DNA of 64,000 nucleotides, taken from positions 16,750 to 80,749 of the forward strand of contig CAKOOV010000005.1 of the NCBI GenBank assembly GCA_934098435.1. The letters run 5' to 3'. The notes under the pieces were generated by a model. That model was given only the letters and a program-made list of their open reading frames with translations. It was not told the DNA's origin and did not search any database. A program made the position numbers and the translations under genes. This DNA comes from an uncultured Bacilli bacterium (GTDB taxonomy: Bacteria; Bacillota_I; Bacilli_A; RF39; UBA660). Positions 3,873 through 35,896 of this stretch are shown one piece after another (position 1 is the stretch's first letter; every line of letters starts with the position of its first letter).

Positions 3873-5306
3873 ATGAATGATAAACAAAATAAACAGATTA
3901 CTAGTAGGGATGTAGATTTTGCTAAATGGTATACTGATGTTGTTAGAGCTGCTAAACTTGCATGTTATTCTAATACTAAGGGGTGTATTGTTATTGAGCC
4001 TAATGGTTATGCTATATGGGAAAATATGCAAAGTATTATAGATAAGAAGTTTAAGGAAACTGGGCATGTTAATGTATCTATGCCAATGCTTATTCCTGAA
4101 TCTCTTCTTAATAAGGAAGGGGAATTAGTAGAGGGATTTGCTCCTGAAGTTGCTTGGGTTACTTATGGTGGTAATAAGAAATTAGATGAGAGGCTATGTA
4201 TTAGACCTACTTCTGAAACGGTATTTAGTGATTATTATGCTAATAATATTTCTTCTTATCGTGATTTACCTAAATTATATAATCAATGGTGTAGTGTATT
4301 AAGATGGGAGAAGGAAACTAGACCTTTTCTTAGAAGTCGTGAGTTTTTATGGCAAGAGGGTCATACTATTCATGAGACTCGTGAAGAGGCTGAAACTGAG
4401 ACTTTACAAATGTTAAATATTTATAATGATTTCTTTCATGATTATTTAGCTATTCCTAGTATTGTAGGTAGGAAGACAGAAAAGGAGAAATTTGCTGGTG
4501 CTGAATATACTTATACAGTTGAAGCTCTTATGTATAATGGTATTACTTTGCAGTCCGCTACTAGTCATTTCTTTGGTCAGAAGTTTGCTCGTGCTTATGA
4601 TATTAAATATACTTCTAGAGATAATAAGATTGATTATCCTTATCAGACTTCTTGGGGTTGTTCTACGAGAATGATAGGAGCTCTTATTATGGTACATTCT
4701 GATGATTATGGTCTTGTTTTACCTCCTAAAATTGCTCCTAAAAAGGTTGTTATTATACCTATTGGTAATGATTTGGAAGTATTATCTTTAGCTAATGATT
4801 ATTTTGATAAGTTGAAACAAGAGGGTATTGAGGCTTATATTGATAATAGTGAAAAGAGTCCGGGATATAAATTTGCTGAAGCTGAAGTTCAAGGTATTCC
4901 AGTACGTATTGAAATTGGTAAGAGGGATTTAGAGAATAATATGGTTACTTTGGTTAGAAGGGATACTAGAGAAAAATTACAAGTATTTACAAATACTGAT
5001 ATTATTCATGATGTTAAATTGCTTCTTCTTGATATTCAAAGGGATATGTATGATAGGGCTTTAAGAAGAAGAGAAGAGATGACTTATACTGCTACGGATA
5101 TGGAAGAGTTTGCTAGTATTATGAATGCTCATCCTGGTTTTGTTAAAGCTATGTGGTGTGGTGATCCTAAATGTGAAGAAAAGATTAAGGAAATAAGAGG
5201 TACGAAATCTAGATGTATTCCTTTTAGTGATGAAAAAGTATCAGATAAATGTGTTGTTTGTGGTAAAGAGGCTAAGGATTTAGTTATTTGGGGAATGCAA
5301 TATTAA
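3873..5306 (+). CDS. proS: prolyl-tRNA synthetase, archaeal/eukaryote-like short form
   Basis: The N-terminus F.KWYTDVV..A.L..YS..KGC.VI.P.GYAIWENMQ and the C-terminal ...WG.QY end are typical of the ~480-aa ProRS type. ATG 3873 follows a GAGGTG RBS (track start 3849 rejected). Confidence 0.93.
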   Translation: MNDKQNKQITSRDVDFAKWYTDVVRAAKLACYSNTKGCIVIEPNGYAIWENMQSIIDKKFKETGHVNVSMPMLIPESLLNKEGELVEGFAPEVAWVTYGGNKKLDERLCIRPTSETVFSDYYANNISSYRDLPKLYNQWCSVLRWEKETRPFLRSREFLWQEGHTIHETREEAETETLQMLNIYNDFFHDYLAIPSIVGRKTEKEKFAGAEYTYTVEALMYNGITLQSATSHFFGQKFARAYDIKYTSRDNKIDYPYQTSWGCSTRMIGALIMVHSDDYGLVLPPKIAPKKVVIIPIGNDLEVLSLANDYFDKLKQEGIEAYIDNSEKSPGYKFAEAEVQGIPVRIEIGKRDLENNMVTLVRRDTREKLQVFTNTDIIHDVKLLLLDIQRDMYDRALRRREEMTYTATDMEEFASIMNAHPGFVKAMWCGDPKCEEKIKEIRGTKSRCIPFSDEKVSDKCVVCGKEAKDLVIWGMQY

Positions 5307-5310
5307 GAAT

Positions 5311-5337
5311 ATCATAGTTTATACTATGGTATTTTTT
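5311..5337 (+). terminator. intrinsic terminator after proS
   Basis: ATCATAGT-TTAT-ACTATGGT (one G.T pair) followed by ATTTTTTG. Confidence 0.6.
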
Positions 5338-5369
5338 GTGTCAAATTTTGTTATATAATAGTTAAAAAC

Positions 5370-5398
5370 TTGACTTAATTGTTAACTATTGGTATTAT
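5370..5398 (+). promoter_or_regulatory. sigma-A-type promoter for the glycosylation operon
   Basis: TTGACT, 17 nt, TATTAT. Confidence 0.5.
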
Positions 5399-5431
5399 TT
5401 ATTTAGTATTAATTTTGAAGGGAAGTTTATT

Positions 5432-6364
5432 ATGAAGAAATTAAGTATTATTGTTCCTTGTTTTAATGAGGAAGAGAGTATACCTTATTTTTATGATGAA
5501 GTTAAAAAGGTTACTAAGAATATGGATATTAAGTTGGAACTTATTTTTGTTGATGATGGAAGTAGGGATAAGACTTTAGAGGTTATTAAGAGTAAGACTG
5601 ATGATAAGGAAGTTAAGTATATTTCTTTTTCAAGAAATTTTGGGAAAGAGGCCGCTATGTATGCTGGACTTAGTATGGCTAGTGGTGATTATGTAACTAT
5701 TATGGATGTTGATTTACAGGATCCACCTAGTTTATTACCTGAAATGGTTAGATTGATTGAAGAAGAAGGATATGACTGTGTTGCCACTAAGAGTACTAGT
5801 AGAAATGGATATTCTTTCTTAAGAAAGACATTTACTAAATGGTTTTATGATATTATTGGTAAAATGTCTAAAACAGAGATGGTACCTGGTGCTAGGGATT
5901 ATAGACTTATGACTAGACAAATGGTAGAGGCTGTTTTAAGTATGAAGGAATATAATCGTTATTCGAAAGGTTTATTTAGTTTTGTTGGATTTAAGACTAA
6001 ATGGATTGAATTTGAAAATAAGGAAAGAGTAGCAGGTACTACTAAATGGAATTTTTGGAAGTTATTTTCTTATGCTTTAGATGGTATTGTAGGATTTAGT
6101 ACGGCTCCTCTTACTATGGCTGCTTTTATAGGTGTTTTGTTCTGTTTAATAGCTTTTATTATGATTATTGTTATTATTGTTAAAACACTTGCTTTTGGTG
6201 ATCCTACTAGCGGATGGCCTAGTCTTGCTTGTATTATTTTTATGGTAAGTGGTATTCAACTTTTATGTTTAGGTGTTATTGGTGAATATTTGGCAAAGAT
6301 GTATATGGAAGTTAAAGATAGACCTATATATATTATTAAAGAAAGTAATGTTGATAAGAAATGA
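5432..6364 (+). CDS. family-2 glycosyltransferase, polyprenyl-phosphate sugar transferase type (CsbB/GtrB-like)
   Basis: IIVPCFNEEESI, DDGSRDKT and DVDLQDPP motifs plus two C-terminal TM helices. Confidence 0.85.
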   Translation: MKKLSIIVPCFNEEESIPYFYDEVKKVTKNMDIKLELIFVDDGSRDKTLEVIKSKTDDKEVKYISFSRNFGKEAAMYAGLSMASGDYVTIMDVDLQDPPSLLPEMVRLIEEEGYDCVATKSTSRNGYSFLRKTFTKWFYDIIGKMSKTEMVPGARDYRLMTRQMVEAVLSMKEYNRYSKGLFSFVGFKTKWIEFENKERVAGTTKWNFWKLFSYALDGIVGFSTAPLTMAAFIGVLFCLIAFIMIIVIIVKTLAFGDPTSGWPSLACIIFMVSGIQLLCLGVIGEYLAKMYMEVKDRPIYIIKESNVDKK

Positions 6365-6780
6365 AAAAGATAAAAGAATTATATTATAAATATGAAGAGA
6401 TTATCTCCTACTTAATAGTGGGAGGTTTAACTACGGTAGTTAGTTTAGCTACATATTATTTACTTGTATATACTATTCTTAATCCAAAAGAAGTAGTAGA
6501 ACTACAGATTGCAAATATTATATCTTGGGTTGCTTCGGTTACTTTTGCTTATTTTACTAATAGGAAATATGTATTTAAAACTAAAGAGAAAATATCTTTT
6601 AAAGAAGGGATTAATTTTTATTTATCTAGAGTAAGTACTCTTCTTTTGGATATGTTAATGATGTATGTATTTGTTAGTGTTTTGAAATTTGATGATAAGA
6701 TTATTAAACTTATTGTTCAGGTTATTGTTATAGTACTTAATTATGTATTAAGTAAGTTTATTGTTTTTAAAAAGAAATAG
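6361..6780 (+). CDS. GtrA-family small membrane protein
   Basis: 139 aa with 4 TM segments. N-terminal Y.IVGGLTTVV pattern. ATGA start/stop overlap with the glycosyltransferase gene. Confidence 0.75.
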   Translation: MKKIKELYYKYEEIISYLIVGGLTTVVSLATYYLLVYTILNPKEVVELQIANIISWVASVTFAYFTNRKYVFKTKEKISFKEGINFYLSRVSTLLLDMLMMYVFVSVLKFDDKIIKLIVQVIVIVLNYVLSKFIVFKKK

Positions 6781-18632: not shown

Positions 18633-20807
18633 ATGGGTAGAAAGTTTGGAAAAAAGGTATTTTCTTTAGGTGATTTATTTACATTTAGAAGTAAGAAAAT
18701 TAATAAAACTAGTAAGAAGAAAAAGAAAAGTAAACTTGAAATTAAGAAAAAAACAGGGCCTATTAATAAGAAACATAAGTGTAATGATAAACATCTTGAT
18801 GAGATTATGAATAGGAGATTTGGTTTGATTATTGTTTTGGTAATTATTATATATATTGTTATTGGTTGTAGGCTTTTTAATCTTCAAATACTTAAGAATA
18901 ATGAATATAATGATAAGCTTACTATGGCTACTGAAAAGACAATTGAAAGTACTAGTGCTCCAAGGGGTAGAATATATGATAGGAATCATAAGTTACTTGT
19001 AGATAATGAGGGGGTTAAAACTATTTATTATAAGAAACAAAATGGTATTACTACTAAGGAAGAGATTGAACTTGCTTATGAGGTTTCAAATAATATTGAT
19101 ATTGATTATTCTAAAATAGATGATAATAAGCTTAAAGATTTTTATTATAAGTCTCATTATAAGGAATGTAGAAAAAAGATTACTGATGAGGAATGGGATT
19201 TATATAATAAGAGAAAACTTAATGATAAGGATATTGATAAACTTATATATGAGAGACTTGATGATGAGATTAGTGAATATACTGATAGTGATAAGAAGGC
19301 TGCGTATATTTATTATTTGATGAATAAGGGTTATTCTTATGCTGAGAAGGTTATTAAGAATAGTGATGTTACTGATGCTGAATATGCTTATATTAGTGAG
19401 AATATTGATAATTTAAAGGGCTTTAATACTAAGCTTGATTGGGAAAGGGTTTATTTGTATGGTGATACTTTTAAGTCTATTCTTGGTAATGTTTCTTCTA
19501 ATACGCAGGGGATTCCTTCGGAATTGTCTAAGGTATATTTGAAGAAGGGGTATACTTTAGATGATAGGGTTGGTATTTCTTATCTTGAATATCAATATGA
19601 GGATTATTTGAGGGGTACTAAGGCTAAGTATAGATTGTTATCGGATAATAGTTATGAACTTGTTAGTGAAGGTAAGAGGGGTAATGATATTGTTCTTACT
19701 ATTGATATTGAACTTCAGAAGTATTTGGAAGATGTTCTTAGTAATGAGGTATTAAATGCTAAGGGTGAACCTGGTACTCAGTATTATAATCGTTCTTTTG
19801 CTATTGTATCTGATCCTAATACTGGGGAGATATTAGCTATGGCAGGTAAACAAGCTGTTTTGAAAGATGGCTATTATCAAATTGTTGATTATACTCCTGG
19901 GATTGTTACTCTTCCTGTTACTCCTGGTAGTGTTGTTAAGGGTGCTTCGATGATGGTTGGATATAAGTATGGGGCAATTGATATTGGTACTGTGCTTAAT
20001 GATGAATGTATTAAAATTAAGGATACTCCTCTTAAGTGTTCTTGGCAGACTATGGGTCCTATTGATGATATTTATGCTTTACAGAATTCTTCGAATGTAT
20101 ATCAATATAAGATTGCTATTAAGGTTGGTAATGGTAGTTATGAATATAATCAAGGATTATCTTTAGATGAGAGTGCGTTTGATAAATATAGAGAGATGTA
20201 TGCTGAATTTGGTTTGGGGGAAAAGACTGGTATTGATCTTCCGGTAGAAAGTTTGGGCTTTATGGGTAAGAGTAGGCTTCCTGGTCATTTACTTGATTTT
20301 TCTATTGGACAGTATGATACTTATACTCCAATACAGTTATCGCAATATATTAATACTATTGCTAATAATGGTGTTAGGCTTAAACCTTATTTATTAAAAG
20401 AGGTATATAAACCTAGTGATAGTGGTGATACTTTTGGTTCTCTAATATATAAGGCTAATGTTACGGAACTTGGTAAATTATCTGTAGAGAAGAAATATAT
20501 TGATAGGGTAAGAGAAGGCTTTTCTGCAGTTGTTACTAGGGGACTTGGTTATGGATATATGGGTAATTATACTAATTCTGCTGGTAAGACTGGTACTAGT
20601 CAAAGCTTTATTGATACTGATGGTGATGGTAAAGTAGATACTGAAACTATTACTTCTTCGTTTGTTGGATATTCTCCAAGTGATAATCCTAAAATGAGTA
20701 TAGTAGTGGTATCTCCTGATATTAGTGTTCCAGATTCTACTACTTATGGTGTTACTAGAAATATATCTGCACAGATTGTAAATAAATATTTTGAACTTAA
20801 TGGTTAG
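18633..20807 (+). CDS. class B penicillin-binding protein (PBP2/FtsI/SpoVD-type transpeptidase)
   Basis: N-terminal TM anchor, then SVVK (SxxK), SSN and KTGT motifs in order. Confidence 0.85.
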   Translation: MGRKFGKKVFSLGDLFTFRSKKINKTSKKKKKSKLEIKKKTGPINKKHKCNDKHLDEIMNRRFGLIIVLVIIIYIVIGCRLFNLQILKNNEYNDKLTMATEKTIESTSAPRGRIYDRNHKLLVDNEGVKTIYYKKQNGITTKEEIELAYEVSNNIDIDYSKIDDNKLKDFYYKSHYKECRKKITDEEWDLYNKRKLNDKDIDKLIYERLDDEISEYTDSDKKAAYIYYLMNKGYSYAEKVIKNSDVTDAEYAYISENIDNLKGFNTKLDWERVYLYGDTFKSILGNVSSNTQGIPSELSKVYLKKGYTLDDRVGISYLEYQYEDYLRGTKAKYRLLSDNSYELVSEGKRGNDIVLTIDIELQKYLEDVLSNEVLNAKGEPGTQYYNRSFAIVSDPNTGEILAMAGKQAVLKDGYYQIVDYTPGIVTLPVTPGSVVKGASMMVGYKYGAIDIGTVLNDECIKIKDTPLKCSWQTMGPIDDIYALQNSSNVYQYKIAIKVGNGSYEYNQGLSLDESAFDKYREMYAEFGLGEKTGIDLPVESLGFMGKSRLPGHLLDFSIGQYDTYTPIQLSQYINTIANNGVRLKPYLLKEVYKPSDSGDTFGSLIYKANVTELGKLSVEKKYIDRVREGFSAVVTRGLGYGYMGNYTNSAGKTGTSQSFIDTDGDGKVDTETITSSFVGYSPSDNPKMSIVVVSPDISVPDSTTYGVTRNISAQIVNKYFELNG

Positions 20808-20836
20808 AGAAGAGACTAGTAAATAGTCTTTTTTCT
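20808..20836 (+). terminator. intrinsic terminator after the PBP gene
   Basis: AGAGACTA-GTAAA-TAGTCTTT followed by a T run. Confidence 0.6.
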
Positions 20837-20886
20837 TTATATTTGCATATATTATGGTTGTATGTAAAGAAATATTTAAAAAGTAC

Positions 20887-20915
20887 TTGACTAATTTATA
20901 TAAAAATGTTATTAT
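20887..20915 (+). promoter_or_regulatory. sigma-A-type promoter of the str operon
   Basis: TTGACT, 17 nt, TATTAT, about 95 nt upstream of rpsL. Confidence 0.55.
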
Positions 20916-21010
20916 TAATTCGTTCGTGAATTTAGGTTTTACTATTGGTAAAACTTATATTTAAGATTAAAAATGAAACACCAGGATATGTGTAAGAAAG
21001 GAGTGATATA

Positions 21011-21424
21011 ATGCCTACAATTAATCAGTTAACTAGAAAACCTAGAACTAAGAAAGTAAGAAAGAGTAAATCTCCAGTATTATTAGTAGGAAAGAATAGT
21101 ATCCAAAAGAAACAAACTGTACAAGTTTCACCTCAAAAGAGAGGAGTTTGTACTAGGGTTGGTACTACTACACCTAAGAAACCTAACTCAGCTTTAAGAA
21201 AATATGCGAGAGTTAGATTATCTAATGGTATGGAAGTTACTTGTTATATTCCAGGTATTGGACACAACTTACAAGAACATAGTGTTGTTCTTATAAGAGG
21301 CGGAAGAGTTAAAGACTTAATCGGTGTTAGATACCATATTATTAGAGGTACTTTAGATACTGCTGGAGTTCAAAACAGAAAGCAAGGTAGAAGTAAGTAC
21401 GGTGCTAAAAAAGATAAGAAATAA
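21011..21424 (+). CDS. rpsL: 30S ribosomal protein S12
   Basis: MPTINQL..., [11 protein letters not shown] and [10 protein letters not shown](I)GVRYH motifs. Confidence 0.97.
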
Positions 21425-21457
21425 TAATTATTAATAATATTGGAAGGAGGATAAACT

Positions 21458-21925
21458 ATGAGAAAGAGACAAGCTACTAAAAGAGATGTTTTAGCAGATC
21501 CTATTTATAATTCTAAGGTGGTTACTAAGTTAGTTAATCATATTATGAAAGATGGTAAAAAAGGTACTGCTCAAAAGATTATATATAATGCTTTTGATAT
21601 AGTTAAAGAAAAAACTGGTGAAGATCCTATGGTAGTATTTAATAAAGCTATGGATAATATTAAACCAGGTCTTGAAGTTAAGTCTAGAAGAGTTGGTGGA
21701 GCTAACTACCAAGTACCAGTTGAGGTTAAACCTGAAAGAGCTCAAGCTTTAGCTTTTAGATGGTTAGCTCAATATGCAAGATTAAGAGGAGGTCATTCAA
21801 TGGCTGAAAATCTTGCTAATGAAATTATTGATGCATCTAATGGAACTGGTGCATCTGTTAAGAAGAAAGATGATACTCATAAGATGGCAGAAGCTAATAA
21901 GGCATTTGCTCATTATAGATGGTAA
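21458..21925 (+). CDS. rpsG: 30S ribosomal protein S7
   Basis: DPIYNS..V.KL.N..M.DGKK..A..I.Y.AF pattern and C-terminal AHYRW. Confidence 0.97.
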
Positions 21926-21965
21926 TTATTGCTATAATTTAGTGATTATTTAAGGAGAGCAATAA

Positions 21966-22346
21966 ATGAATGATAATGATTCTAAAGATATAGGTTTTAT
22001 TTATAACAATAATGATTTGAGTTATTGTAATATTAGATTTGCTTTTGATAAATTACTTGGTCCACTTGCTACTCTAAGTTGTTATAGTAAATTTGGAGAT
22101 AGTAGAAAAGATTATACTAGAATTTTAAAAATAGTTTCTAGATGGTCTAGTGAATATGAAGAGAAGAGAACTTTAATCTATATTGATCATAATGAAATGT
22201 TATCTGTATACTATAAAGTCGATGAGTTAAATGTTGAACTTCTTAGTTATATTGATAGTGATTTAACTGATGAAATAGTAATTTGGTTATGGGAAATCAT
22301 GTTACTAAGAAAAAAGCAAATTGATAATTTAAAGACTGATAAATAA
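21966..22346 (+). CDS. hypothetical acidic protein (126 aa) inserted in the str operon
   Basis: AAGGAG RBS. Starts 40 nt after rpsG with no terminator in between. Weak paralogy to the next ORF (ILKIVSRWSSEY versus ILNIVEKWLTYY). Confidence 0.55.
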   Translation: MNDNDSKDIGFIYNNNDLSYCNIRFAFDKLLGPLATLSCYSKFGDSRKDYTRILKIVSRWSSEYEEKRTLIYIDHNEMLSVYYKVDELNVELLSYIDSDLTDEIVIWLWEIMLLRKKQIDNLKTDK

Positions 22347-22358
22347 TTACTAATAAAT
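22342..22358 (+). repeat. 17-nt direct repeat, copy 1 (AATAATTACTAATAAAT)
   Basis: Overlaps the stop codon of ORF 21966-22346. Identical to 23324-23340. Confidence 0.6.
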
Positions 22359-22384
22359 ATAGAGTATAAAGGAAATTAATTGTA

Positions 22385-22756
22385 ATGGATAATATGAAGA
22401 AGATTACTAGGCTTGAAGTTGAAACTGGTTTAGCTAAGTTACTTTTTTATACTAAAGTAAGTGTATACTATGAACCATATCTACCATATCGTGATATTTT
22501 TGAAAAAATATTGAATATTGTGGAGAAATGGTTAACTTATTATGCTACTGATGGTGATTTGTCTAAAATGACTGATGATGAAGCAAAAAGTATAATAGAA
22601 TTAGTTGATGAGATACCAGTTGAAGCTTATTGCTGTGACTATTATGAAGAAATAGAAAATTGGGTTGATATAGTGATTTACTATGGAAGCTGTCCGTTAA
22701 ATGCAATATTTGATGAAAATAAAATTATATTGAAAGGAAAAAGCAAAAAGTTATGA
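22385..22756 (+). CDS. hypothetical acidic protein (123 aa) inserted in the str operon
   Basis: AAAGGAAA RBS-like element upstream. Its stop overlaps the next start (ATGA). Confidence 0.55.
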   Translation: MDNMKKITRLEVETGLAKLLFYTKVSVYYEPYLPYRDIFEKILNIVEKWLTYYATDGDLSKMTDDEAKSIIELVDEIPVEAYCCDYYEEIENWVDIVIYYGSCPLNAIFDENKIILKGKSKKL

Positions 22757-23325
22757 GTGATGATAAAGATAAAATAATTGGTAAAGATCCAAAAACGGGA
22801 TCGTTTATAAATGAAAGAGGAGAGGCTTTAAAGTTTACAAAAAAATCTATGTCTATTTATAGCAATACTCCAGATAAACCTCATGATGGTGTGCATTTAA
22901 ATTATGATAAAGATGGTAAAATATTAACTATGACAACACATAACAAGGATAAGACTGAAAAAAGTACTAATAGTGGAAGCTGTTATTTAACCACTGCTTG
23001 TATGAAACATTATTTAAGTAATTTTGACGATAATTGTTATGAGCTTTCTGTACTTAGATGGTTCAGAGATAATTTTGTTTCTGAGAAAGATATAGAACAT
23101 TATTATAAAACTGCACCTTATATAGTTAAAGGTATAGAAAATGATTGTAATAAAGATATTGTTTATGATTATATTTATGATAATGTAGTAGATTATTGCG
23201 TTACTGCTATCGAAAATGGAAATTATATTGAAGCATATAATAGATATAAAGATAGTATTATTGATCTTGAACAAGTATATGCAAGAAAAGAATTAGGCAA
23301 GAGACTTGTTAAAACTTTAAGTTAA
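22753..23325 (+). CDS. hypothetical protein (190 aa) with a Cys motif CYLTTAC...[17 protein letters not shown]
   Basis: Translationally coupled to the previous ORF. The C-terminal half carries a C.LTTAC / DD.CYEL..LR.FRD motif that I recall from small Firmicute/phage proteins but cannot name. Confidence 0.6.
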
Positions 23326-23340
23326 TAATTACTAATAAAT
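23324..23340 (+). repeat. 17-nt direct repeat, copy 2 (AATAATTACTAATAAAT)
   Basis: Overlaps the stop codon of ORF 22753-23325. Identical to 22342-22358. Confidence 0.6.
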
Positions 23341-23369
23341 TAAATAATAAAAGAAAGGAAAAAAGAATT

Positions 23370-25442
23370 ATGGCTCGTGAAATAAGCTTAGATCATACAA
23401 GAAATATTGGAATTATGGCTCATATTGATGCTGGTAAGACTACTTGTACTGAGAGAATTTTGTTCCATACTCATAAGATTCATAAGATTGGTGAAACTCA
23501 TGATGGTGAATCGCAAATGGACTGGATGGCTCAAGAGCAAGAGAGAGGTATTACTATTACTAGTGCCGCTACTACTGCATTTTGGAAGGGTTATAGATTT
23601 AATATTATTGATACTCCAGGACATGTTGACTTTACTATTGAAGTTCAAAGAAGTTTAAGAGTACTTGATGGTGCTGTTTTACTTATTGATGCTCAAGCTG
23701 GTGTTGAACCTCAAAGTGAGACTGTATGGAGACAAGCAAATGAATATGCTGTACCTAGAATTATCTTTGCTAATAAGATGGATAAAATGGGAGCTGACTT
23801 CTATTTTAGTTTAGGTACTATTAAAGATAGATTAGGAGCAAATACTGCTGCTATGGAACTTCCTATTGGAGCTGAATCTGATTTTAATGGTGTAATTGAT
23901 CTAGTTACTATGAAAGCATATCACTTTGATGGTAAACAAGCTGAAGATTATACTGAGATTGAGATTCCTGAAGATATGAAGGATAAAGCAGTAGAATATA
24001 GAAATATATTAATTGAAGCTGCTGCTGATTATGATGAAGAATTAATGATGAAATACTTAGATGGTGAAGAAATAGGAGTAGAAGAACTTAAAAAGGCTAT
24101 CAGAAAGGGTGTATTAAAGGCAGAATTCTTCCCTGTTATGTGTGGAACTGCTTTAGGTAATATGGGTATTAAGTTACTACTTGATGCTGTTGTTGATTAT
24201 TTACCTGCTCCTACTGATGTTGAGGCTATTGAATGTACTGATATGAAAGGAAACTTAGTATTAAGACATCCATCTGATTCTGAACCATTTACTGCATTAG
24301 CATTTAAGATTGCTACTGATCCATTCGTAGGAAGACTTACTTTCTTTAGAGTATATTCTGGTACTTTAAAGAGTGGTTCTTATGTACTTAACTCTACTAA
24401 AGATGTTAAGGAAAGAATTGGTAGAATACTACTAATGCATGCTAATCACAGAGAAGAGATTCCAGAAATATATGCTGGTGAAATTGGAGCTGCTGTAGGT
24501 CTTAAGAATACTACAACTGCTGATACTCTATGTGATGAGAAGAAACCTGTTATCATGAAAGGTATGGAATTCCCTGAACCAGTTATTACTCAGGCTGTTG
24601 AACCTAAAACTAAAGCAGATCAAGAAAAGATGGGTATTGCCCTTCAAAAACTTGCTGAAGAAGATCCAACATTTAGAATGCATACTGATCCTGAAACTGG
24701 TCAAACTACTATCTCTGGTATGGGTGAGTTACACCTTGATATTATCGTAGATAGAATGAGAAGAGAATTTAATGTTGAAGCTACTGTTGGTGCTCCAATG
24801 GTTGCTTATAGAGAAACTATTACACAAACTGGTGAGTGTGAAGGTAAACATATTAAACAATCTGGTGGACGTGGACAATATGGACATGTTTGGATTAGAT
24901 TTGAACCAAATCCTGAGAAAGGTTATGAATTTGTTGATAACATTGTTGGTGGTGTTGTTCCTAGAGAATACATCTCAGTTATCGATAAAGGATTACAAGA
25001 TGCTATGCAAACTGGTATTCTAGCAGGATACCCTATGGTAGATGTTAAGGCTACATTATTTGATGGATCATACCACGATGTAGACTCATCTGAAATGGCA
25101 TTTAAGATTGCAGCATCACTTGCTTTAAAAGAAGCTAAAAACAAATGTAAACCTGTACTACTTGAACCAATAATGAAAGTAGTAGTTACTGCTCCAGATG
25201 AATATACTGGTGCTGTAATTGGTGACTTAACAGCAAGAAGAGGTAAACCACAAGGACAAGAATCAAGAGGAAATGCTATTGCATTTACTGCGATGGTACC
25301 ACTTGCTGAAATGTTTGGTTATGCTACTAGTTTAAGAAGTTCTACTCAAGGTAGAGGTAACTATGTAATGGAACTTGACCATTATGAAGAAGTTCCAAAA
25401 TCAATTGCTGATGAAATCATCAAAAAAAATGGTGGAAATTAG
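23370..25442 (+). CDS. fusA: elongation factor G
   Basis: [14 protein letters not shown] and DTPGHVDF motifs; full-length 690 aa. Confidence 0.97.
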
Positions 25443-25515
25443 TAAAAACACTTGAAAAAATACAATAATATGATAAAATATATATTGTAATATTAAAGAA
25501 AGAGAGGAAATTAAA

Positions 25516-26700
25516 ATGGCAAAAGCTAAATTTGATCGTTCAAAACCACACGTTAACATTGGTACAATTGGCCACGTTGACCATGGTAAAACAACATTAA
25601 CTGCCGCTATTACAAAAGTTTTAGCAGCTAAAGGCGGAGCTGAATTTATGGATTATGCAAATATCGATAAAGCTCCAGAAGAAAGAGAAAGAGGTATTAC
25701 AATCAACACTGCACACGTTGAATACCAAACTGAAAAGAGACACTATGCTCACGTTGACTGTCCAGGACACGCAGACTATGTTAAAAACATGATTACTGGT
25801 GCTGCTCAAATGGATGGAGCAATCCTAGTTATTGCTGCAACTGATGGTCCTATGGCTCAAACAAGAGAGCACATCTTACTTGCTAGACAAGTTGGTGTAC
25901 CTAGAATGGTTGTATTCTTAAACAAATGTGATATGGTTGATGATGAAGAATTATTAGACCTAGTTGAAATGGAAGTAAGAGAATTACTTACTGAATATGG
26001 ATTTGATGGAGACAATACTCCAATCATTAGAGGTTCTGCTCTTAAAGCTCTTGAAGGAGATCCTAAGTATGTTAAGGCTATTGAAGACTTAATGGATGCT
26101 GTTGATGAATGGATTCCAACTCCTGAAAGAGATAATGACAAACCATTCTTAATGTCAATTGAAGACGTATTTACTATTACTGGTAGAGGAACAGTTGTTA
26201 CTGGTAGAGTTGAAAGAGGACAATTAAAACTTAATGATGAAGTTGAAATCGTTGGTTTAAAAGATACTAAGAAAACAGTTGTTACTGGTATTGAAATGTT
26301 TAGAAAACAACTTGACTATGCTGAAGCTGGAGATAATGCTGGTGTATTATTAAGAGGAATTGACAGAAGTGAAGTTGAAAGAGGACAAGTTCTTGCTAAA
26401 CCTGGAACAGTTCATCCACATAAAAAATTCAAAGCACAAGTTTATGTACTTTCTAAAGAAGAAGGTGGAAGACATACTCCATTCTTTACAAACTACAGAC
26501 CTCAATTCTATTTCAGAACTACTGATGTTACTGGTGTAGTTACATTACCAGAAGGAACTGAAATGGTTATGCCTGGTGACAATGTTACTATGACAGTTGA
26601 ATTAATTGCTCCAATCGCAGTTGAAAATGGTACTAAATTCTCTATTAGAGAAGGTGGACACACTGTTGGTGCTGGTTCAGTTACTGAAATTATTGAATAA
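25516..26700 (+). CDS. tuf: elongation factor Tu
   Basis: [36 protein letters not shown] and NKCD motifs. Confidence 0.97.
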
Positions 26701-26708
26701 TTAAATTA

Positions 26709-26736
26709 AAGATACTCGTTTGAGTGTCTTTTTTTC
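26709..26736 (+). terminator. intrinsic terminator after tuf
   Basis: AAGATACTC-GTTT-GAGTGTCTT followed by TTTTTC. Confidence 0.75.
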
Positions 26737-26747
26737 TTTTCCATTTC

Positions 26748-26804
26748 AAACATAAACAAGTTTATGTTTTCCATGGTATGAGCAAGCCTTGTTGTCTTGC
26801 TCAT
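26748..26804 (+). other. Two further perfect hairpins in the tuf-distal intergenic region
   Basis: AAACATAAAC-AA-GTTTATGTTT (26748-26769) and ATGAGCAAG-CCTTGTTGT-CTTGCTCAT (26778-26804). Confidence 0.5.
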
Positions 26805-26854
26805 AAAGGTTATTTGGTTTGATAATGAATAGGTATTTGCTGTGAATATAATAT

Positions 26855-26906
26855 TCATTTCTAGACTTAGGCTGGAAATGACATGAAATGACTTTGGCAT
26901 TTCATG
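26855..26906 (+). repeat. Two tandem hairpins of the AG-AC..GG-CT family (copies 2a, 2b)
   Basis: 2a: TCATTTCTAG-ACTTAGG-CTGGAAATGA (one G.T pair). 2b: CATGAAATG-ACTTTGG-CATTTCATG (perfect 9 bp). Confidence 0.6.
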
Positions 26907-26980
26907 AAAGGTGATAGAATGTAAACGATAATAATTACTTAAATATTATTATTACATAAATTATTATAGGGAGGGATTGT

Positions 26981-27535
26981 ATGAATCTTTATGATAATAT
27001 TAATAATAATAAGAAATGTGTATGTAATCCTATTATTATTGGGATGACTGGACCTACAGGGCCACAGGGATTAATTGGTCCGACGGGACCTCAAGGAGAG
27101 AGAGGAGAAACTATTAGTAGTACTGAAGGGATATTCTTTGCTAGTTATAATGATACTAATGATGCAATAGCAATGGTTATTAATGATACTTGGTTAATAC
27201 CAGAACTTAGTGAGTATTTTATTATTCCTAATAATACGGAAGTAGAAGTTGTACCTGGTATATATGAAATTGATTTATCAGGATATATTGATGGGGTAGA
27301 TAATACTCATGGCGGTAGTTTTTATTTAGTAGATAGTACTGGTGCTGCTATTAAGGATTTAAATTTTGAATTACTTCTTGGTGATATTAGTAGGATGTAT
27401 TTTAGTAAGAATATTTTATTTAGATTTGAGGAAGATACAATACTTGAGATTATGACTAATCTAACTGGTGATATTAATACTTCTAATGTTGGGGTAAAAG
27501 ATGTTACTTTACTTATGAAGAAAATACATGAATAG
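26981..27535 (+). CDS. collagen-like triple-helix repeat protein (BclA-type exosporium/spore surface protein candidate)
   Basis: Eight G-X-Y triplets GMTGPTGPQGLIGPTGPQGERGET (27041-27112) followed by a ~140-aa globular C-terminal domain. Confidence 0.6.
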   Translation: MNLYDNINNNKKCVCNPIIIGMTGPTGPQGLIGPTGPQGERGETISSTEGIFFASYNDTNDAIAMVINDTWLIPELSEYFIIPNNTEVEVVPGIYEIDLSGYIDGVDNTHGGSFYLVDSTGAAIKDLNFELLLGDISRMYFSKNILFRFEEDTILEIMTNLTGDINTSNVGVKDVTLLMKKIHE

Positions 27536-31308: not shown

Positions 31309-31974
31309 ATGAAGAAGGTTTTTATTCCTTCGATGGATGATTTATATAAAATGCAAGATATGCATATAAATATATTACCATATTTATATGCTAAGGCTAT
31401 TGAAAGATTATGTATTGAATATAATAATTATCCTAAGATGGGAAGTATATTAAGAAATGAATATAAATATTTACGTGAGGATCCGGTTATTGCTAAGGCT
31501 ATATGTATGATGTATCCTAGTGAGATTATGTATTCTGATATTGTTAAATATGATACTGGTTTAGCTATGAAATTAATTAGTGAACCTAAGAATAATGATA
31601 TTTATAGATTGGATAATATTTCTTACTTTGGTAATAATTTGGATAGTAATTTATTAATTCAAAAAGAAGTTATAAGAATATTGTATAATGAAATTTATAA
31701 TAATCCTAAGTATCGTTTTGAGTATAAGGATAGTAATATTTTAGATGATATTTTTATGGGAAGATTTAATACGACATTATTTTTAGATGATATTACTAAA
31801 GAGCAGCTTGGTTATATTGAACCATATTATGGGTTGGATAGTGATATGTTATCTAATATGATGGAACGTTATGTGAATAGATATGGTATTGATTATATGT
31901 CTAATAATAAGGATATATTAACTAATCAAACTACAGAAGTTAAAAGATTATTTAGATGTATTGATAGAAAATAA
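31309..31974 (+). CDS. hypothetical protein (221 aa)
   Basis: ATG 31309 preferred over GTG 31294 (GGGGTG RBS-like 8 nt upstream). No motif recognised. Confidence 0.5.
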   Translation: MKKVFIPSMDDLYKMQDMHINILPYLYAKAIERLCIEYNNYPKMGSILRNEYKYLREDPVIAKAICMMYPSEIMYSDIVKYDTGLAMKLISEPKNNDIYRLDNISYFGNNLDSNLLIQKEVIRILYNEIYNNPKYRFEYKDSNILDDIFMGRFNTTLFLDDITKEQLGYIEPYYGLDSDMLSNMMERYVNRYGIDYMSNNKDILTNQTTEVKRLFRCIDRK

Positions 31975-32178
31975 GACGATGATAAGGAAATAGTAATATT
32001 AAAGATGCTTTATAGAGAGTTAAGAATGGTGGAAGCTTGACATGATATTTAATATGAATTCACCCTTTAGTTTTAACCGTTTATCTGGTTATAGATTTGA
32101 GTGTATAACAATTGTTATAAAGAAAGGTGGTACCACGGATATTATTCGTCCTTTTATGGTACTATCTTTTTATTTTTA
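31975..32178 (+). promoter_or_regulatory. T-box riboswitch leader with Phe (UUC) specifier
   Basis: GA/K-turn motif GACGATGA...AGAGAG. Specifier context GAA-TTC-A at 32059-32061. Conserved T-box sequence GGTGGTACCACGG at 32126-32138. A terminator alternative GTACCA...TGGTAC is followed by a T run to 32177. Confidence 0.8.
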
Positions 32179-32186
32179 GGAGGAAT

Positions 32187-32474
32187 ATGGGATATAATAT
32201 TGATTATTTACTTAGATATGTATCTATGGATACATATAATAAAATTATAAATAATAATAATGATTATGTATTGGGATTACTTAGTGATAATTATATTGAT
32301 GTTAATCTTAATATTAAATATTTAATTAAATATGGGGTATCTAATATAGATAAGATTGTTTATAATAATATTAATGATTTTATTGTTAGTCATAGTGAAT
32401 TTATTAATGTTATTAAGAATTATGAGAAGAGTTTATCTAAAGATGAAATTATAATGTTATATGAAAATAAATAG
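32187..32474 (+). CDS. hypothetical protein (95 aa) between the T-box leader and pheS
   Basis: AGGAGG RBS 4 nt upstream of ATG 32187. The track's upstream extension (32127) would run through the T-box terminator. Confidence 0.5.
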   Translation: MGYNIDYLLRYVSMDTYNKIINNNNDYVLGLLSDNYIDVNLNIKYLIKYGVSNIDKIVYNNINDFIVSHSEFINVIKNYEKSLSKDEIIMLYENK

Positions 32475-32480
32475 GAGGAT

Positions 32481-33521
32481 ATGATGAATAAGATTGATGA
32501 TGTTAAAAAATTAATTGAAGAGAAGTTAATTGGTATTAATAGTATGGAAGAATTAAATGCTATTAAGAGTGAGTTTTTGGGTAAGAAGGGATTTATTACT
32601 GAACTTCAGGGTTTGATTAAAGAAGTAGAAAATGATAAGAAAAAGGAATTTGGTATGAAATTAAATGAGGTTAAGTCTTTGTTTAATTCTAAGTATGAAG
32701 AAATTAAAAGTAAAATAGAAGAGGATATTATTAATAAAAGATTGGAAGAAGAGGCTATTGATGTTACTCTTCCTAGTGATGGTATTTGTACTGGTTCTTT
32801 ACATCCTTTTAATAGAATTATTGAAGAAGTAGAGGATTTGTTTGTTTCTATGGGATATGATGTAGTTGATGGTCCTGAGCTTGAGACTGATGAGTATTGT
32901 TTTAAGAGGCTTAATGTTCCGGAGGGACATCCCGCTAGGGATATGCAAGATACTTTTTATATTACTAATGAGTATTTACTTAGAACACAGACTAGTTCTA
33001 GTCAGGCTCATACTATGGAAGATAGTATTTCTAAAGAACCTATTAGAATGATATGTCCTGGTAAGGTATATAGAAGGGATGATGATGCTACGCATTCTCA
33101 TCAATTTGGACAGGTTGAAGGGCTTGTAGTTGATAAGGATATTTCTCTTGCTGATCTTAAGGGAACACTTGAAATATTTGCTAAGAAATTAATAGGAGAG
33201 AATACTAAAGTAAGATTTAGACCTAGTTATTTTCCTTTTACTGAGCCTAGTGTTGAGGTTGATTTATCATGCTTTAAATGTGGTGGTAAGGGATGTAATT
33301 TATGTAAGGGTACTGGCTTTATTGAGGTATTAGGAGCTGGTATGGTTCATCCTGATGTACTTAGAATGGGTGGTTATGATCCTAAGGTATATACTGGGTT
33401 TGCTTTTGGCACTGGTCTTGATAGGCTTGCCATGTTTAAATATAATATTCCTGATATTAGGTATTTATATACTAATGATATTAGAATGCTTAAACAATTT
33501 GATAGAAAGGATGAGGAATAA
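32481..33521 (+). CDS. pheS: phenylalanyl-tRNA synthetase alpha subunit
   Basis: HP......E....F...G, FRPSYFPFTEPS and GFAFG.G.DR motifs. Confidence 0.95.
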   Translation: MMNKIDDVKKLIEEKLIGINSMEELNAIKSEFLGKKGFITELQGLIKEVENDKKKEFGMKLNEVKSLFNSKYEEIKSKIEEDIINKRLEEEAIDVTLPSDGICTGSLHPFNRIIEEVEDLFVSMGYDVVDGPELETDEYCFKRLNVPEGHPARDMQDTFYITNEYLLRTQTSSSQAHTMEDSISKEPIRMICPGKVYRRDDDATHSHQFGQVEGLVVDKDISLADLKGTLEIFAKKLIGENTKVRFRPSYFPFTEPSVEVDLSCFKCGGKGCNLCKGTGFIEVLGAGMVHPDVLRMGGYDPKVYTGFAFGTGLDRLAMFKYNIPDIRYLYTNDIRMLKQFDRKDEE

Positions 33522-35896
33522 TGTTATTAAGTAGAAAGTTTGTAAGTGATTATATTGATTTACCTAAAGATGAGAATATTCATGATATTGCTGAAAAGAT
33601 GACTAGTATAGGTAATGAATATGATTATGAAGGTAAGTTAATACCTTGTAGTGGTTTGGTTATTGGTAAGATTATTGAATGTGAGATGCATCCTGATTCT
33701 ACTAAATTACATATATGTAAGGTTGATGTTGGTAATAAGGTACTTCAGATTGTATGTGGGGCTCCTAATGCTAGATGTGGTATTAAGGTAATAGTAGCAA
33801 TGGATGGGGCAACTCTTCCTGATAAAACTATTAGGAAATCTCTTTTAGCGGGATATGAGAGTAATGGTATGTTATGTTCTTTAGGAGAACTTGGACTTGA
33901 TCATAAATACTTAAAGCAAAGTGATTTGGATGGTATTTGTGAGCTTGATAATGATGCTCCTATTGGGGAGGATCCTATTAAGTATTTGAAACTTGATGAT
34001 GAAGTTATTGATTTTGAACTTACTTCTAATAGGGGTGATTTACTTAGTATATTAGGTATGGCATATGAACTTGGTGCTATATATAATACTAAAGTTAAAG
34101 ATATTGATTTATCTTACAAAGAGAATAATAATAATATTAAAGATTTATTATCTTTGAATGTTAAAACTAATGAATGTTCTTTATTCTTAGTTAAAAAGGC
34201 TATTAATGTTACTATTGGTGAGAGTCCTGATTTTATTAAGAATAGGCTTATTGCTTCTGGTATTAGACCTATTAATAATGTTGTAGATATTTCTAATTAT
34301 GTAATGCTTGAAACTGGACAACCGCTTCATTTTTATGATGCTGATAGACTTGGTAGTTCTATTGGGGTAAGAATGGCAAATGATGGTGAAGATATAACTA
34401 CTTTAGATGGTGAAAAGAGAGTTCTTACTAATAGTGATATGGTTATTGTTAATGATATGGATACTCCTATTGGATTAGCGGGAGTTATGGGTGGTTTATC
34501 TACTGAGGTTGAAAATGATACTAAGAATATAGTAATAGAGAGTGCTATATTTAATCCGACATTAATTAGAAAGACTTCGAAGAAGATACTTAGAAGTGAA
34601 GCTTCTAATAGATTTGAAAAGGGTCTTGATCCTAATAGAACTTATATGGCTATTGAAAGAAGTATGCATTTACTTGAGAAATATGCTGGTGCTACTATTA
34701 TTGGGGGATTATTAGAATATAAGGATATAGATATTAATGATAAGGAAATAACTATTACTTATGATAAGATTAATAAAGTACTTGGTACTGATTTGGATAA
34801 AGAGACAATACTTGATACTTTAGATAGATTAGAATTTACTTATATAACTAATAAAGAAGAAGTAACTATTAGAGTTCCTTCGAGAAGAATTGATGTTAAT
34901 ATTGAAGAAGATATTATTGAAGAAGTTGGAAGGATATATGGTATTGATAATATTCAAGGTAGAAAGATGAATCTTTCGGTAAGAAGTGGTCATGTAGATA
35001 AAACTAATAGAAGTATTAGACATTTGCTTTGTGATTTAGGTCTTAATGAGACTCTTACTTATACTCTTATTAAAGAAGATGATGTATATAAATATACTAC
35101 TGATAGTTTTGATATGGTTAAGATATTGGATCCTATGACTTTAGATAGATGTACTTTAAGATATAGTCTTATTCCTTCACTTTTATCTGTATATGATTAT
35201 AATATTAAAAGGGGTATTACTGATATTAATTTATTTGAAATAGGTAAGGGCTTTTATAATAAGAATAATATATATGGGGAAGAAGAGAGATTATCTATTC
35301 TTATGAGTGGTAATTATTATCATACTTTGGGTAATATTAGGAAAGCGGATTTTTATGTTATTAAGGGAATAGTAGAAAGATTACTTAATTATTTGGGTTA
35401 TAATGGTAGATATTATTTTAAAGTAATGGATCTTCCTAGTGAATTACATCCTGGTGTTAGTGCTTCTATATATATTGATAATAAAAAAATAGGAATTATT
35501 GGTAAGATACATCCTAATGTGACTAAAGATAATATTTTTGTTAGTGAGATTAATTTATCATTACTTAAGAGTATTAGAACTTCTAAAATGAAATATAAAG
35601 AGATTAGTAAATATCCTTCTATATCTAAAGATGTTGCTTTCTTACTTAGAGATGATATTACTTCAGAAGAAGTAATTAAGGCTATTAAGAAAGCTGGAGG
35701 TAGATTACTTACTAAGATAGAGGTATTTGATTTATATAAAGGTATAGGTACTCCTGAAAATATGAAATCTTTAGCATTTAAGTTATATTTTGAAGATCCT
35801 AATAAGACTTTGACTTTAGATGAGGTTATGCCTATATTTGAAAAGATTATTACTGAGATTGAAAAGAAATATAATGCTAGTGTAAGAAGTAGTTAA
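33521..35896 (+). CDS. pheT: phenylalanyl-tRNA synthetase beta subunit
   Basis: 791 aa with a tRNA-binding domain (HPDSTKLHICKVDVG) and B3/4, B5 and FDX-ACB domain order. ATGA-type overlap with pheS. Confidence 0.95.
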   Translation: MLLSRKFVSDYIDLPKDENIHDIAEKMTSIGNEYDYEGKLIPCSGLVIGKIIECEMHPDSTKLHICKVDVGNKVLQIVCGAPNARCGIKVIVAMDGATLPDKTIRKSLLAGYESNGMLCSLGELGLDHKYLKQSDLDGICELDNDAPIGEDPIKYLKLDDEVIDFELTSNRGDLLSILGMAYELGAIYNTKVKDIDLSYKENNNNIKDLLSLNVKTNECSLFLVKKAINVTIGESPDFIKNRLIASGIRPINNVVDISNYVMLETGQPLHFYDADRLGSSIGVRMANDGEDITTLDGEKRVLTNSDMVIVNDMDTPIGLAGVMGGLSTEVENDTKNIVIESAIFNPTLIRKTSKKILRSEASNRFEKGLDPNRTYMAIERSMHLLEKYAGATIIGGLLEYKDIDINDKEITITYDKINKVLGTDLDKETILDTLDRLEFTYITNKEEVTIRVPSRRIDVNIEEDIIEEVGRIYGIDNIQGRKMNLSVRSGHVDKTNRSIRHLLCDLGLNETLTYTLIKEDDVYKYTTDSFDMVKILDPMTLDRCTLRYSLIPSLLSVYDYNIKRGITDINLFEIGKGFYNKNNIYGEEERLSILMSGNYYHTLGNIRKADFYVIKGIVERLLNYLGYNGRYYFKVMDLPSELHPGVSASIYIDNKKIGIIGKIHPNVTKDNIFVSEINLSLLKSIRTSKMKYKEISKYPSISKDVAFLLRDDITSEEVIKAIKKAGGRLLTKIEVFDLYKGIGTPENMKSLAFKLYFEDPNKTLTLDEVMPIFEKIITEIEKKYNASVRSS

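Follow-up and report, generated by a model that had tools for sequence, protein, structure and literature searches.

Most type II antitoxins carry a DNA-binding domain, and morons classically sit near the end of a prophage, with lysis genes on one side and the integrase on the other. In sporulating bacteria, the elements skin, SPbeta and gin split the genes sigK, spsM and gerE (PMC5595907, PMC4191935). Clusters of translation genes also receive insertions; those described around the str/S10/spc supercluster, in the portion of the survey by Brandis et al. considered here, comprise several genes and fall between operons, such as between str and S10 (Brandis et al. 2019, PMC6735719). Here, we describe a 64-kb stretch of DNA from an uncultured gut Bacilli bacterium (the window; guanine plus cytosine (GC) content, 26.9%), in which three open reading frames (ORF1, ORF2 and ORF3, of 126, 123 and 190 amino acids) lie inside the str operon between rpsG and fusA, at the coordinates given in an earlier note on this DNA. 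The insert holds a mobile, strain-variable accessory module and is not a new part of the translation machinery. Our preferred reading, to which we assign a probability of about 0.5, is that the cassette may be a toxin–antitoxin-, abortive-infection- or exclusion-like conflict module that hitch-hikes on transcription of the str operon.

The three ORFs are genes and not chance reading frames. ORF3 homologues form more than 1,250 clusters at 90% identity. Comparison with a relative whose proteins are 79–81% identical gave a ratio of nonsynonymous to synonymous substitution rates (dN/dS) of 0.17 for ORF2 and the same value for ORF3, which is the mark of purifying selection, and the dN of both genes is much above that of the flanking genes. 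In addition, an identical ORF3 protein is found on 22 contigs from independent human-gut samples, and in the three of these that were compared (3/3) the DNA from rpsL to ORF3 is identical as well, so that the arrangement is not an assembly artefact. A chance-ORF reading was down-weighted because of the homologous clusters, the purifying selection and the identical DNA in other samples.

The module was followed into other genomes by a scan of one genome per species, which gave 228 matching stretches; 80 loci were kept and 86 loci, designated here by L numbers, were examined for context. Nearly all of the 80 lie in metagenome-assembled genomes labelled Bacilli, Tenericutes, Mollicutes or Firmicutes; a few carry other labels. 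A small gene on the same strand (90–153 amino acids, median 120) lies upstream of the ORF3 homologue in 75 of the 78 loci with enough upstream sequence, and this gene usually overlaps the ORF3 homologue or ends within a few nucleotides of it. The conserved unit is a two-gene pair composed of a small upstream partner and a member of the ORF3 family. The earlier proposal of a two- or three-component module therefore stands for two components and falls for three, with ORF1 being an extra paralogue. In 54 loci the upstream gene is of the ORF1/ORF2 family, and in the others it is from one of the small families c4, c13, c9 and c42, whose homology to the main partner family is weak or undetectable: profile–profile comparison with that family gave a weak score for c4 (E=8.5e-4) and negative results for c9 and c13. 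Surplus or orphan partner genes are present in the window, L039, L045, L058 and L077; the module itself occurs only once in the window.

In loci outside the str operon, the pair has a near-consensus promoter and a ribosome-binding site upstream (TTGATT-17-TATAAT and AAGAAAGGAG), and a terminator-like hairpin with a T-run often follows it. The idea of a module hitch-hiking on a core ribosomal operon was thus correct as to an accessory insert inside the str unit and too narrow as to its habitat: the module is not specific to ribosomal operons and mostly lies elsewhere, with a promoter of its own.

Two other neighbourhoods of ORF3 homologues were seen. The c10 family, of 130 amino acids and with no Pfam match, lies directly 3' of the ORF3 homologue in L020, L021, L024, L031, L066, L070 and L071; these loci include the three without an upstream partner, and c10 may be an alternative downstream partner. 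Large predicted viral contigs in IMG/VR (L182–L189; 149–167 kb, one of 52 kb) encode a 177-residue ORF3 homologue a few kb from tape-measure-like genes, and the gene upstream of it is an unrelated 187-residue ORF with no PHROG or Pfam match.

ORF3 (22753–23325, + strand) is divided into two regions by its AlphaFold2 model, which has a predicted local distance difference test score (pLDDT) of 81: a beta-strand head (residues 8–75) and a tail of five helices (residues 78–189). The segment encoding residues 1–75 (22753–22977, + strand) is the variable, beta-rich and basic head, with an isoelectric point (pI) of 8.9 and a conserved PHxxxH. This is followed by the conserved helical tail, residues 76–190 (22978–23325, + strand), which carries the pattern CYLTTAC...DDNCYEL..LRWFRD...YY..AP.IV. 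Residues 77–145 match the NCBIfam model NF041770, the CFI-box, from end to end (model positions 1–68 of 69, E=7e-6) at 25.7 bits, which does not reach the curated cut-off of 40 bits. Four other members of the ORF3 family likewise match from end to end at 25.8–29.1 bits, and bona fide CFI-box proteins score 52–54 bits.

Further support for this relationship came from tblastn, which aligned ORF3 residues 62–176 with WP_263082632.1, a protein annotated as CFI-box-CTERM on a Lysinibacillus plasmid (32.8% identity over 115 amino acids, E=4e-7). A three-way alignment of the ORF3, Lysinibacillus and podophage tails has C[YF]LTT, DDxxxxL..LR.[FY]RD, YY..AP.IV and I[EK]xG..EA[YF]..YK in common. The CFI-box signature motifs are present in ORF3 (a C-[FY]-[IL]-T-T start, LR.[FY]RD and YY..AP), the domain is C-terminal, from residue 77, and the similarity runs about 40 residues beyond the NF041770 model. 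As judged from these alignments, residues 76 to ~180 are a divergent CFI-box domain, an assignment that names a fold relative and not a function. In an alignment of 59 ORF3 sequences, no variation occurs at Cys77, Cys83 and Cys149, and conservation at Cys95, His44 and His48 is 90% or more.

Other proteins that end in a CFI-box were seen in two settings. On the Lysinibacillus capsici plasmid pFN9B (NZ_CP106864.1; L167:2814-7814), an 860-residue CFI-box protein has a weak PIN match together with a Ser/Thr kinase and a treble-clef zinc finger. Downstream of its gene are genes for VWA, PP2C phosphatase and DnaJ-like proteins, in a conflict-system-like operon flanked by IS1182 copies, and the triad seen with this protein has been noted in prokaryotic conflict systems (PMC7159879). 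In Caudoviricetes sp. MW202701.1 (L168:1412-4396), a podophage gene that lies between those for the portal and the major capsid protein encodes a hypothetical protein of 994 residues with a full-score CFI-box end (52 bits). The domain is therefore found, too, in a protein whose gene lies in a virion-gene module.

The upstream genes ORF1 (21966–22346, + strand) and ORF2 (22385–22756, + strand) encode proteins with a pI of 4.87 and 4.57, respectively. BLASTP aligns the two at E=8e-5 (26% identity over 78 amino acids), they align over their full length, and both contain KLL, ILxIVxxW and EExxxW motifs. Each matches the partner-family profile at 1e-31 to 1e-38, a profile that itself includes ORF1 and ORF2. 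On this comparison the two are paralogues of a small, acidic type that resembles immunity proteins or antitoxins, and the earlier description of them as small, acidic and weakly alike holds. From 55 family members, AlphaFold2 models ORF1 with confidence as a bundle of four helices (pLDDT 90; predicted template modelling score, 0.82). ORF2 is a divergent member of the same family. A word-indexed search returned few relatives (11 for ORF1 and 13 for ORF2), and an exhaustive profile search of 1.8 billion representatives found 75 of the partner family, nearly all of 90–150 amino acids. A few members are tandem fusions, and none of the 75 representatives could be linked to any named family.

Scans of the three proteins, 55 partner-family members and 59 ORF3-family members against Pfam, NCBIfam, PHROGs and PADLOC returned a single recurrent result, the sub-threshold CFI-box match. 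PADLOC-DB 2.0 gave no match at E<=1 for ORF1, ORF2 or ORF3, and sequence-profile searches of the PDB gave none. The ORF1 and ORF3 models had no match at E<=0.001 in the PDB (best E, 0.015 for one model and 0.5 for the other) or in BFVD (best E, 0.02). The PDB hits of the ORF1 model were generic four-helix bundles with low TM-scores and were rejected, as was the substrate-binding domain of DnaK, a fold match with a low TM-score. The family and structure comparisons proposed in the earlier note thus yield no named match beyond the CFI-box. Its statement that none of the three proteins belongs to a named family is right in that no characterised family was found for any of them, and has to be amended for the ORF3 tail, which is assignable, below threshold, to the CFI-box. 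Literature searches found nothing on the CFI-box domain name and motif (CFIATAA), and no prior description of the ORF3 family, its partner or gene insertions between rpsG and fusA.

Variation in ORF3 is concentrated in the head and follows the partner. Across de-duplicated loci, heads are 45% identical when the partner family is the same and 25% when it differs, whereas tails are 69% and 70% identical. Heads associated with different partner types keep a common skeleton that includes PHxxxH. Where a genome has several copies of the module, the copies use different partner families in five of six genomes. In one assembly (CAVKUP01), the tails of L026 and L083 are 97% identical and the heads 30%, the partners being P-type and c13-type, which points to domain-level recombination or gene conversion. 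The overall pattern is the one expected if the partner recognises the head and if co-resident copies must not cross-react, and it suggests that the two proteins bind each other.

The junction between rpsG and fusA is polymorphic among close relatives. Among the 86 loci, the module lies between rpsG and fusA only in L006, L025, L036 and L058; together with the window and L175 these make six occupied backbones. In L087–L090, whose EF-G is 97–100% identical, the junction is empty: it reads TGG-TAA-GAAAGGAAAATGAATT-ATG, with a gap of 19–21 nucleotides and no scar. These scar-free sites place the left edge of the insert precisely at the rpsG stop codon and its right edge at the fusA ribosome-binding site. 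The earlier view that rpsG and fusA are normally adjacent is borne out by the metagenome loci of S7 relatives that contain both genes (n=75), all of which have a gap of 9–209 nucleotides; the insertion in the window is therefore unusual. With the junction empty in L087–L090 and in all 75 metagenome loci that could be examined, the cassette does not behave as a core gene, and the comparison of this junction among relatives, which the earlier note had proposed, identifies it as accessory. In a tree of S7 and EF-G, occupied and empty sites interleave within a clade that is at least 94% identical, and L058 falls in a second clade, where its nearest relatives are empty.

Occupied sites differ from each other in content. 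The window and L006 have 98.8% identical EF-G, and their ORF3 proteins are 60%, their ORF1 proteins 70% and the products of the middle gene 32% identical. L025 has two genes and L176 three, and the first gene is 100% identical between them over 117 aligned residues; L176 then carries an ORF2–ORF3 unit of the window type, and L025 has its own ORF3 homologue. In the window, a 17-nucleotide exact direct repeat, AATAATTACTAATAAAT, spans the ORF1 stop codon (copy 1, 22342–22358, + strand) and the ORF3 stop codon (copy 2, 23324–23340, + strand). It thereby brackets ORF2–ORF3, and these are its only two copies in the 64 kb. The polymorphic junction, the divergent cassettes, the L025/L176 pair and the repeat together indicate unit-wise replacement with ORF1 left as an orphan partner. 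ORF1 is thus most likely a second partner paralogue, left behind when the unit downstream of it was exchanged. A search of the cassette edges for target-site duplications and att sites found only a short TAATTAYT motif, present at both edges, and the 17-nucleotide repeat, with no inverted repeats and no recombinase.

The contigs L169 and L171 are identical in DNA to the window from rpsL through ORF3, yet their fusA (4618–6690) differs, with a dS of 0.23–0.24 and 97–98% amino acid identity. The fusA of the window is closest to that of L006 (dS 0.10), and the rpsL and rpsG of L006 are more distant (dS 0.35–0.50). A different fusA beside identical rpsL–ORF3 DNA places a recombination breakpoint at or just after the cassette.

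Elsewhere the module travels on mobile elements. A large serine recombinase is encoded within four genes of the module in 19 of the 80 loci, and these recombinases fall into three lineages that are only ~25% identical to each other. Prophages of 40–56 kb in IMG/VR carry the pair at one end, flanked by the endolysin gene and the serine integrase gene. The smallest carriers are elements of ~3 kb in which the pair is the sole cargo beside the recombinase, with or without a 65-residue ORF. One of ~2.9 kb (in L053:4106-9085), made up of a recombinase, a partner and an ORF3 homologue and nothing else, splits the gene of a SpoVD-like class B penicillin-binding protein (PBP) exactly at residues 352–354. 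Equivalent elements of ~3 kb split a gene encoding Amidase_3 and four LysM domains (in L009:173-5066, L017:3200-7634 and L055:4821-9530).

A mechanism can be proposed from these features, with the cassette as a copy that is either domesticated or hitch-hiking. ORF3 would be the conserved effector or sensor, with a constant CFI-box tail and a fast-diversifying head of 75 residues. ORF2 would be its specific partner, made in fixed ratio through translational coupling, and would bind ORF3 via the head and so neutralise or gate it. ORF1 would be a partner paralogue left from an earlier version of the cassette. Normally the module would reside on prophages, on mini serine-recombinase elements and at variable chromosomal spots, under its own promoter; in the lineage of the window it would have entered the str operon at an exact point, with the rpsG stop codon on one side and the fusA ribosome-binding site on the other, to be read through from the str promoter. 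Any toxicity or defence activity of the module is likewise putative. Several points weigh against such a reading. The Pfam, NCBIfam, PHROGs, PADLOC and PDB-profile searches gave no match to a known toxin, antitoxin or defence protein, the ORF1 and ORF3 models found no fold match in the PDB or BFVD, and ORF3 has no recognisable catalytic motif. The partner, predicted as a plain four-helix bundle, has no helix-turn-helix or ribbon-helix-helix match and no recognisable DNA-binding domain. The most conserved part of ORF3 is the CFI-box, which has no assigned function and is elsewhere only a C-terminal appendage, and the co-variation of head and partner could in part reflect co-inheritance of adjacent DNA and not a protein interface.

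Four other explanations were weighed. The pair could have a regulatory or structural role in spore-forming gut Bacilli that has nothing to do with conflict, for example as a metal-binding factor linked to the cell wall or sporulation, with its carriage on mobile elements being incidental. We regard this as unlikely but keep it in view because of the Cys and His conservation: Cys77, Cys83, Cys95, Cys149, His44 and His48 suggest a metal site, and PHxxxH persists across partner types. The recurrent neighbours are cell-wall enzymes (Amidase_3-LysM, SleB-like Hydrolase_2 and SpoVD-like PBP), and some module loci encode what we take, by eye and not from a family scan, to be Spo0A-like and sporulation-type sigma-factor-like proteins. 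The cell-wall genes are, however, targets split by the elements and not co-regulated partners, and a multi-copy, orthogonal, fast-diversifying and presence/absence-polymorphic pair would be atypical for a housekeeping regulator. Diversification of this kind, with a variable domain, a co-varying small acidic partner and a constant domain, would also suit a polymorphic toxin that is exported or packaged, in which the CFI-box tail is the sorting or packaging signal, the head a small toxin aimed at competitors or loaded in phage particles, and the upstream partners, including ORF1, immunity proteins. The extra or orphan partners in the window, L039, L045, L058 and L077, the fused tandem partners and the CFI-box itself, which is by definition a C-terminal appendage of unrelated proteins (among them the 994-residue podophage protein encoded beside the portal gene), all fit this explanation. 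It is nevertheless decidedly improbable, as ORF3 has no membrane-helix-like segment and no LXG, WXG or RHS-type trafficking domain, no secretion genes recur beside the module in the 86 loci, the orientation is reversed relative to known polymorphic toxins (here the partner gene comes first and the variable part of ORF3 is N-terminal) and the heads share a PHxxxH skeleton rather than having unrelated toxin folds. Low hydropathy and the lack of any membrane-helix-like segment extend to all three proteins.

The mini-elements invite a different explanation, in which the pair is a recombination directionality factor (RDF) or excision regulator of large serine recombinases and the str copy is a stranded remnant. 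Here, an element that holds only the partner, the ORF3 homologue and a recombinase (with or without the 65-residue ORF) interrupts genes that would need precise excision, and a non-phage gene-intervening element with a recombinase and an extra factor is known in gin (PMC5595907). RDFs have no conserved sequence, structure or synteny, so the missing homology is no evidence against this role (PMC12286644). What makes it very unlikely is the distribution: 61 of the 80 loci have no recombinase within four genes, the window has no further copy of the module, and, of 18 relatives of the recombinase in IMG/VR, 16 do not have the pair within 3.5 kb. One recombinase subtype (85–91% identical) occurs with P, c13 and c4 partner/head types, and ORF3 tails are just as conserved beside recombinases that are only ~25% identical, a pattern contrary to that of cognate specificity. 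Purifying selection acts on stand-alone copies, which have a promoter and a terminator-like hairpin of their own. Finally, the position in the str operon could itself be functional, with the proteins acting as lineage-specific translation accessory factors on S7, EF-G, EF-Tu or the ribosome. Six or more variants of the cassette sit at exactly the same junction in two clades, the cassette is probably co-transcribed with translation genes, and its composition matches that of the host. The empty, scar-free sites in relatives with 97–100% identical EF-G contradict a translation-related role, as does the finding that only four of the 80 species-representative loci lie at this junction, the others being scattered, on prophages or recombinase elements or under their own promoters; moreover, the cassette proteins diverge far faster than their flanks. 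We consider this explanation extremely improbable.

The conflict-module reading can be given a more specific form, which we put forward tentatively and at somewhat less than an even chance. ORF2–ORF3 would represent an undescribed family of conflict modules built on the CFI-box, in which a constant tail is joined to a diversifying head, and exchangeable four-helix partners, each specific to a type, keep that head locked. Such a family would be an analogue, with reversed polarity, of polymorphic toxin–immunity loci, would be carried by prophages and, as sole cargo, by mini serine-recombinase elements, and could colonise and be exchanged in the interior of an essential ribosomal operon.

The layout of the str unit on the + strand is as follows. 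A candidate sigma-70-like promoter (20887–20915; TTGACT-17-TATTAT with TG, from a consensus scan) lies just 3' of a terminator-like hairpin at 20806–20836 and precedes rpsL (ribosomal protein S12; 21011–21424; PF00164 in identical or related loci) and rpsG (ribosomal protein S7; 21458–21925). The cassette starts directly 3' of the rpsG TAA stop codon. It is followed by fusA (EF-G; 23370–25442), whose ribosome-binding site, GAAAGGAAAA, is intact at the right edge of the insert, by tuf (EF-Tu; 25516–26700) and by a terminator-like hairpin that closes the unit (26708–26731). The gaps rpsG/ORF1, ORF1/ORF2 and ORF3/fusA are 40, 38 and 44 nucleotides, an AGGA-type ribosome-binding site precedes each of ORF1, ORF2 and ORF3, and an ATGA overlap, consistent with the proposed translational coupling, joins ORF2 to ORF3. 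A hairpin scan of 20700–27000 gave only the two hairpins named above and none in the cassette, so nothing within it would stop transcription. The short gaps and the lack of a terminator in the insert, both pointed out earlier, are thus upheld from the rpsL promoter-like site to tuf, and the cassette is probably read through from the str promoter.

Within the gap before ORF1, the extended -10-like sequence TGCTATAAT (21930–21938, + strand), directly after the rpsG stop codon, is a possible weak internal promoter; it was not called by the promoter scan and is not conserved in the related locus L006. The GC content of ORF1–ORF3 is 24–28% against 27% for the window, so that composition carries no foreign signature, and an Rfam scan of the cassette gave no RNA family. 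Two features elsewhere in the window were recorded. Directly 3' of the tuf terminator, a 184-residue ORF (26981–27535) has a collagen-like GPTGPQGLIGPTGPQGERG repeat near its N terminus and is, to our eye, reminiscent of exosporium or BclA-type proteins. A T-box leader (31970–32156; Rfam RF00230, 106.8 bits) overlaps the annotated GTG start of the ORF at 32127–32474, itself upstream of 32481–35896. This ORF probably has its true start further downstream.

The locus is a population-level example of foreign genes within the str operon, where the operon is apparently intact and different versions are exchanged at one site, and it is relevant to the means by which selfish or defence genes ensure their expression and escape deletion. 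The family is large, with its >1,250 clusters found chiefly in poorly studied, uncultured gut Bacilli. The CFI-box, an NCBIfam name with neither a function nor a literature, gains a tractable model of 190 residues with a specific partner. The ~3-kb serine-recombinase elements could be of practical interest as compact integrase systems and, if the module is a new type of toxin–antitoxin or defence system, the head–partner code would be a natural set of orthogonal protein pairs.

In comparison with known systems, the module resembles type II toxin–antitoxin loci in being a small bicistronic operon with overlapping stop and start codons (ATGA in ORF2/ORF3, and the same layout in 75 of 78 loci), in having an upstream protein that is small, acidic and fast-evolving and a downstream protein that is more conserved, and in its multiple orthogonal copies per genome, its carriage on prophages and mobile elements and its presence/absence polymorphism. 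It differs in lacking toxin or antitoxin homology and an identifiable DNA-binding domain in the partner. With polymorphic toxin–immunity loci it shares a constant and a variable domain, a small partner matched to the variable domain, cassette exchange at a fixed locus and leftover partners such as ORF1. Unlike those loci, its polarity is reversed, with the partner upstream, the variable part N-terminal and the constant part C-terminal; it has no trafficking domain or secretion system, and its heads are divergent versions of one small fold. ORF3 also stands apart from the bona fide CFI-box proteins, which are multidomain proteins of 860–994 residues, in being short and stand-alone with a small beta head.

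Relatives of the pair lie between lysis genes and a serine integrase, as do prophage morons and defence genes, and the ~3-kb elements that split amidase and SpoVD-like genes resemble miniature versions of skin, SPbeta and gin. The copy in the window, however, has no recombinase, att sites or phage genes and lies inside an essential operon without interrupting a coding sequence. Like the insertions of Brandis et al., it places foreign genes in a conserved cluster of translation genes; unlike those described in the portion of that survey considered here, it separates two cistrons within the str operon and leaves the downstream ribosome-binding site in place. Small mobile modules of two genes are familiar, whereas the components of this one, its reversed polarity, its carriage on mini-elements and its site within an operon are not.

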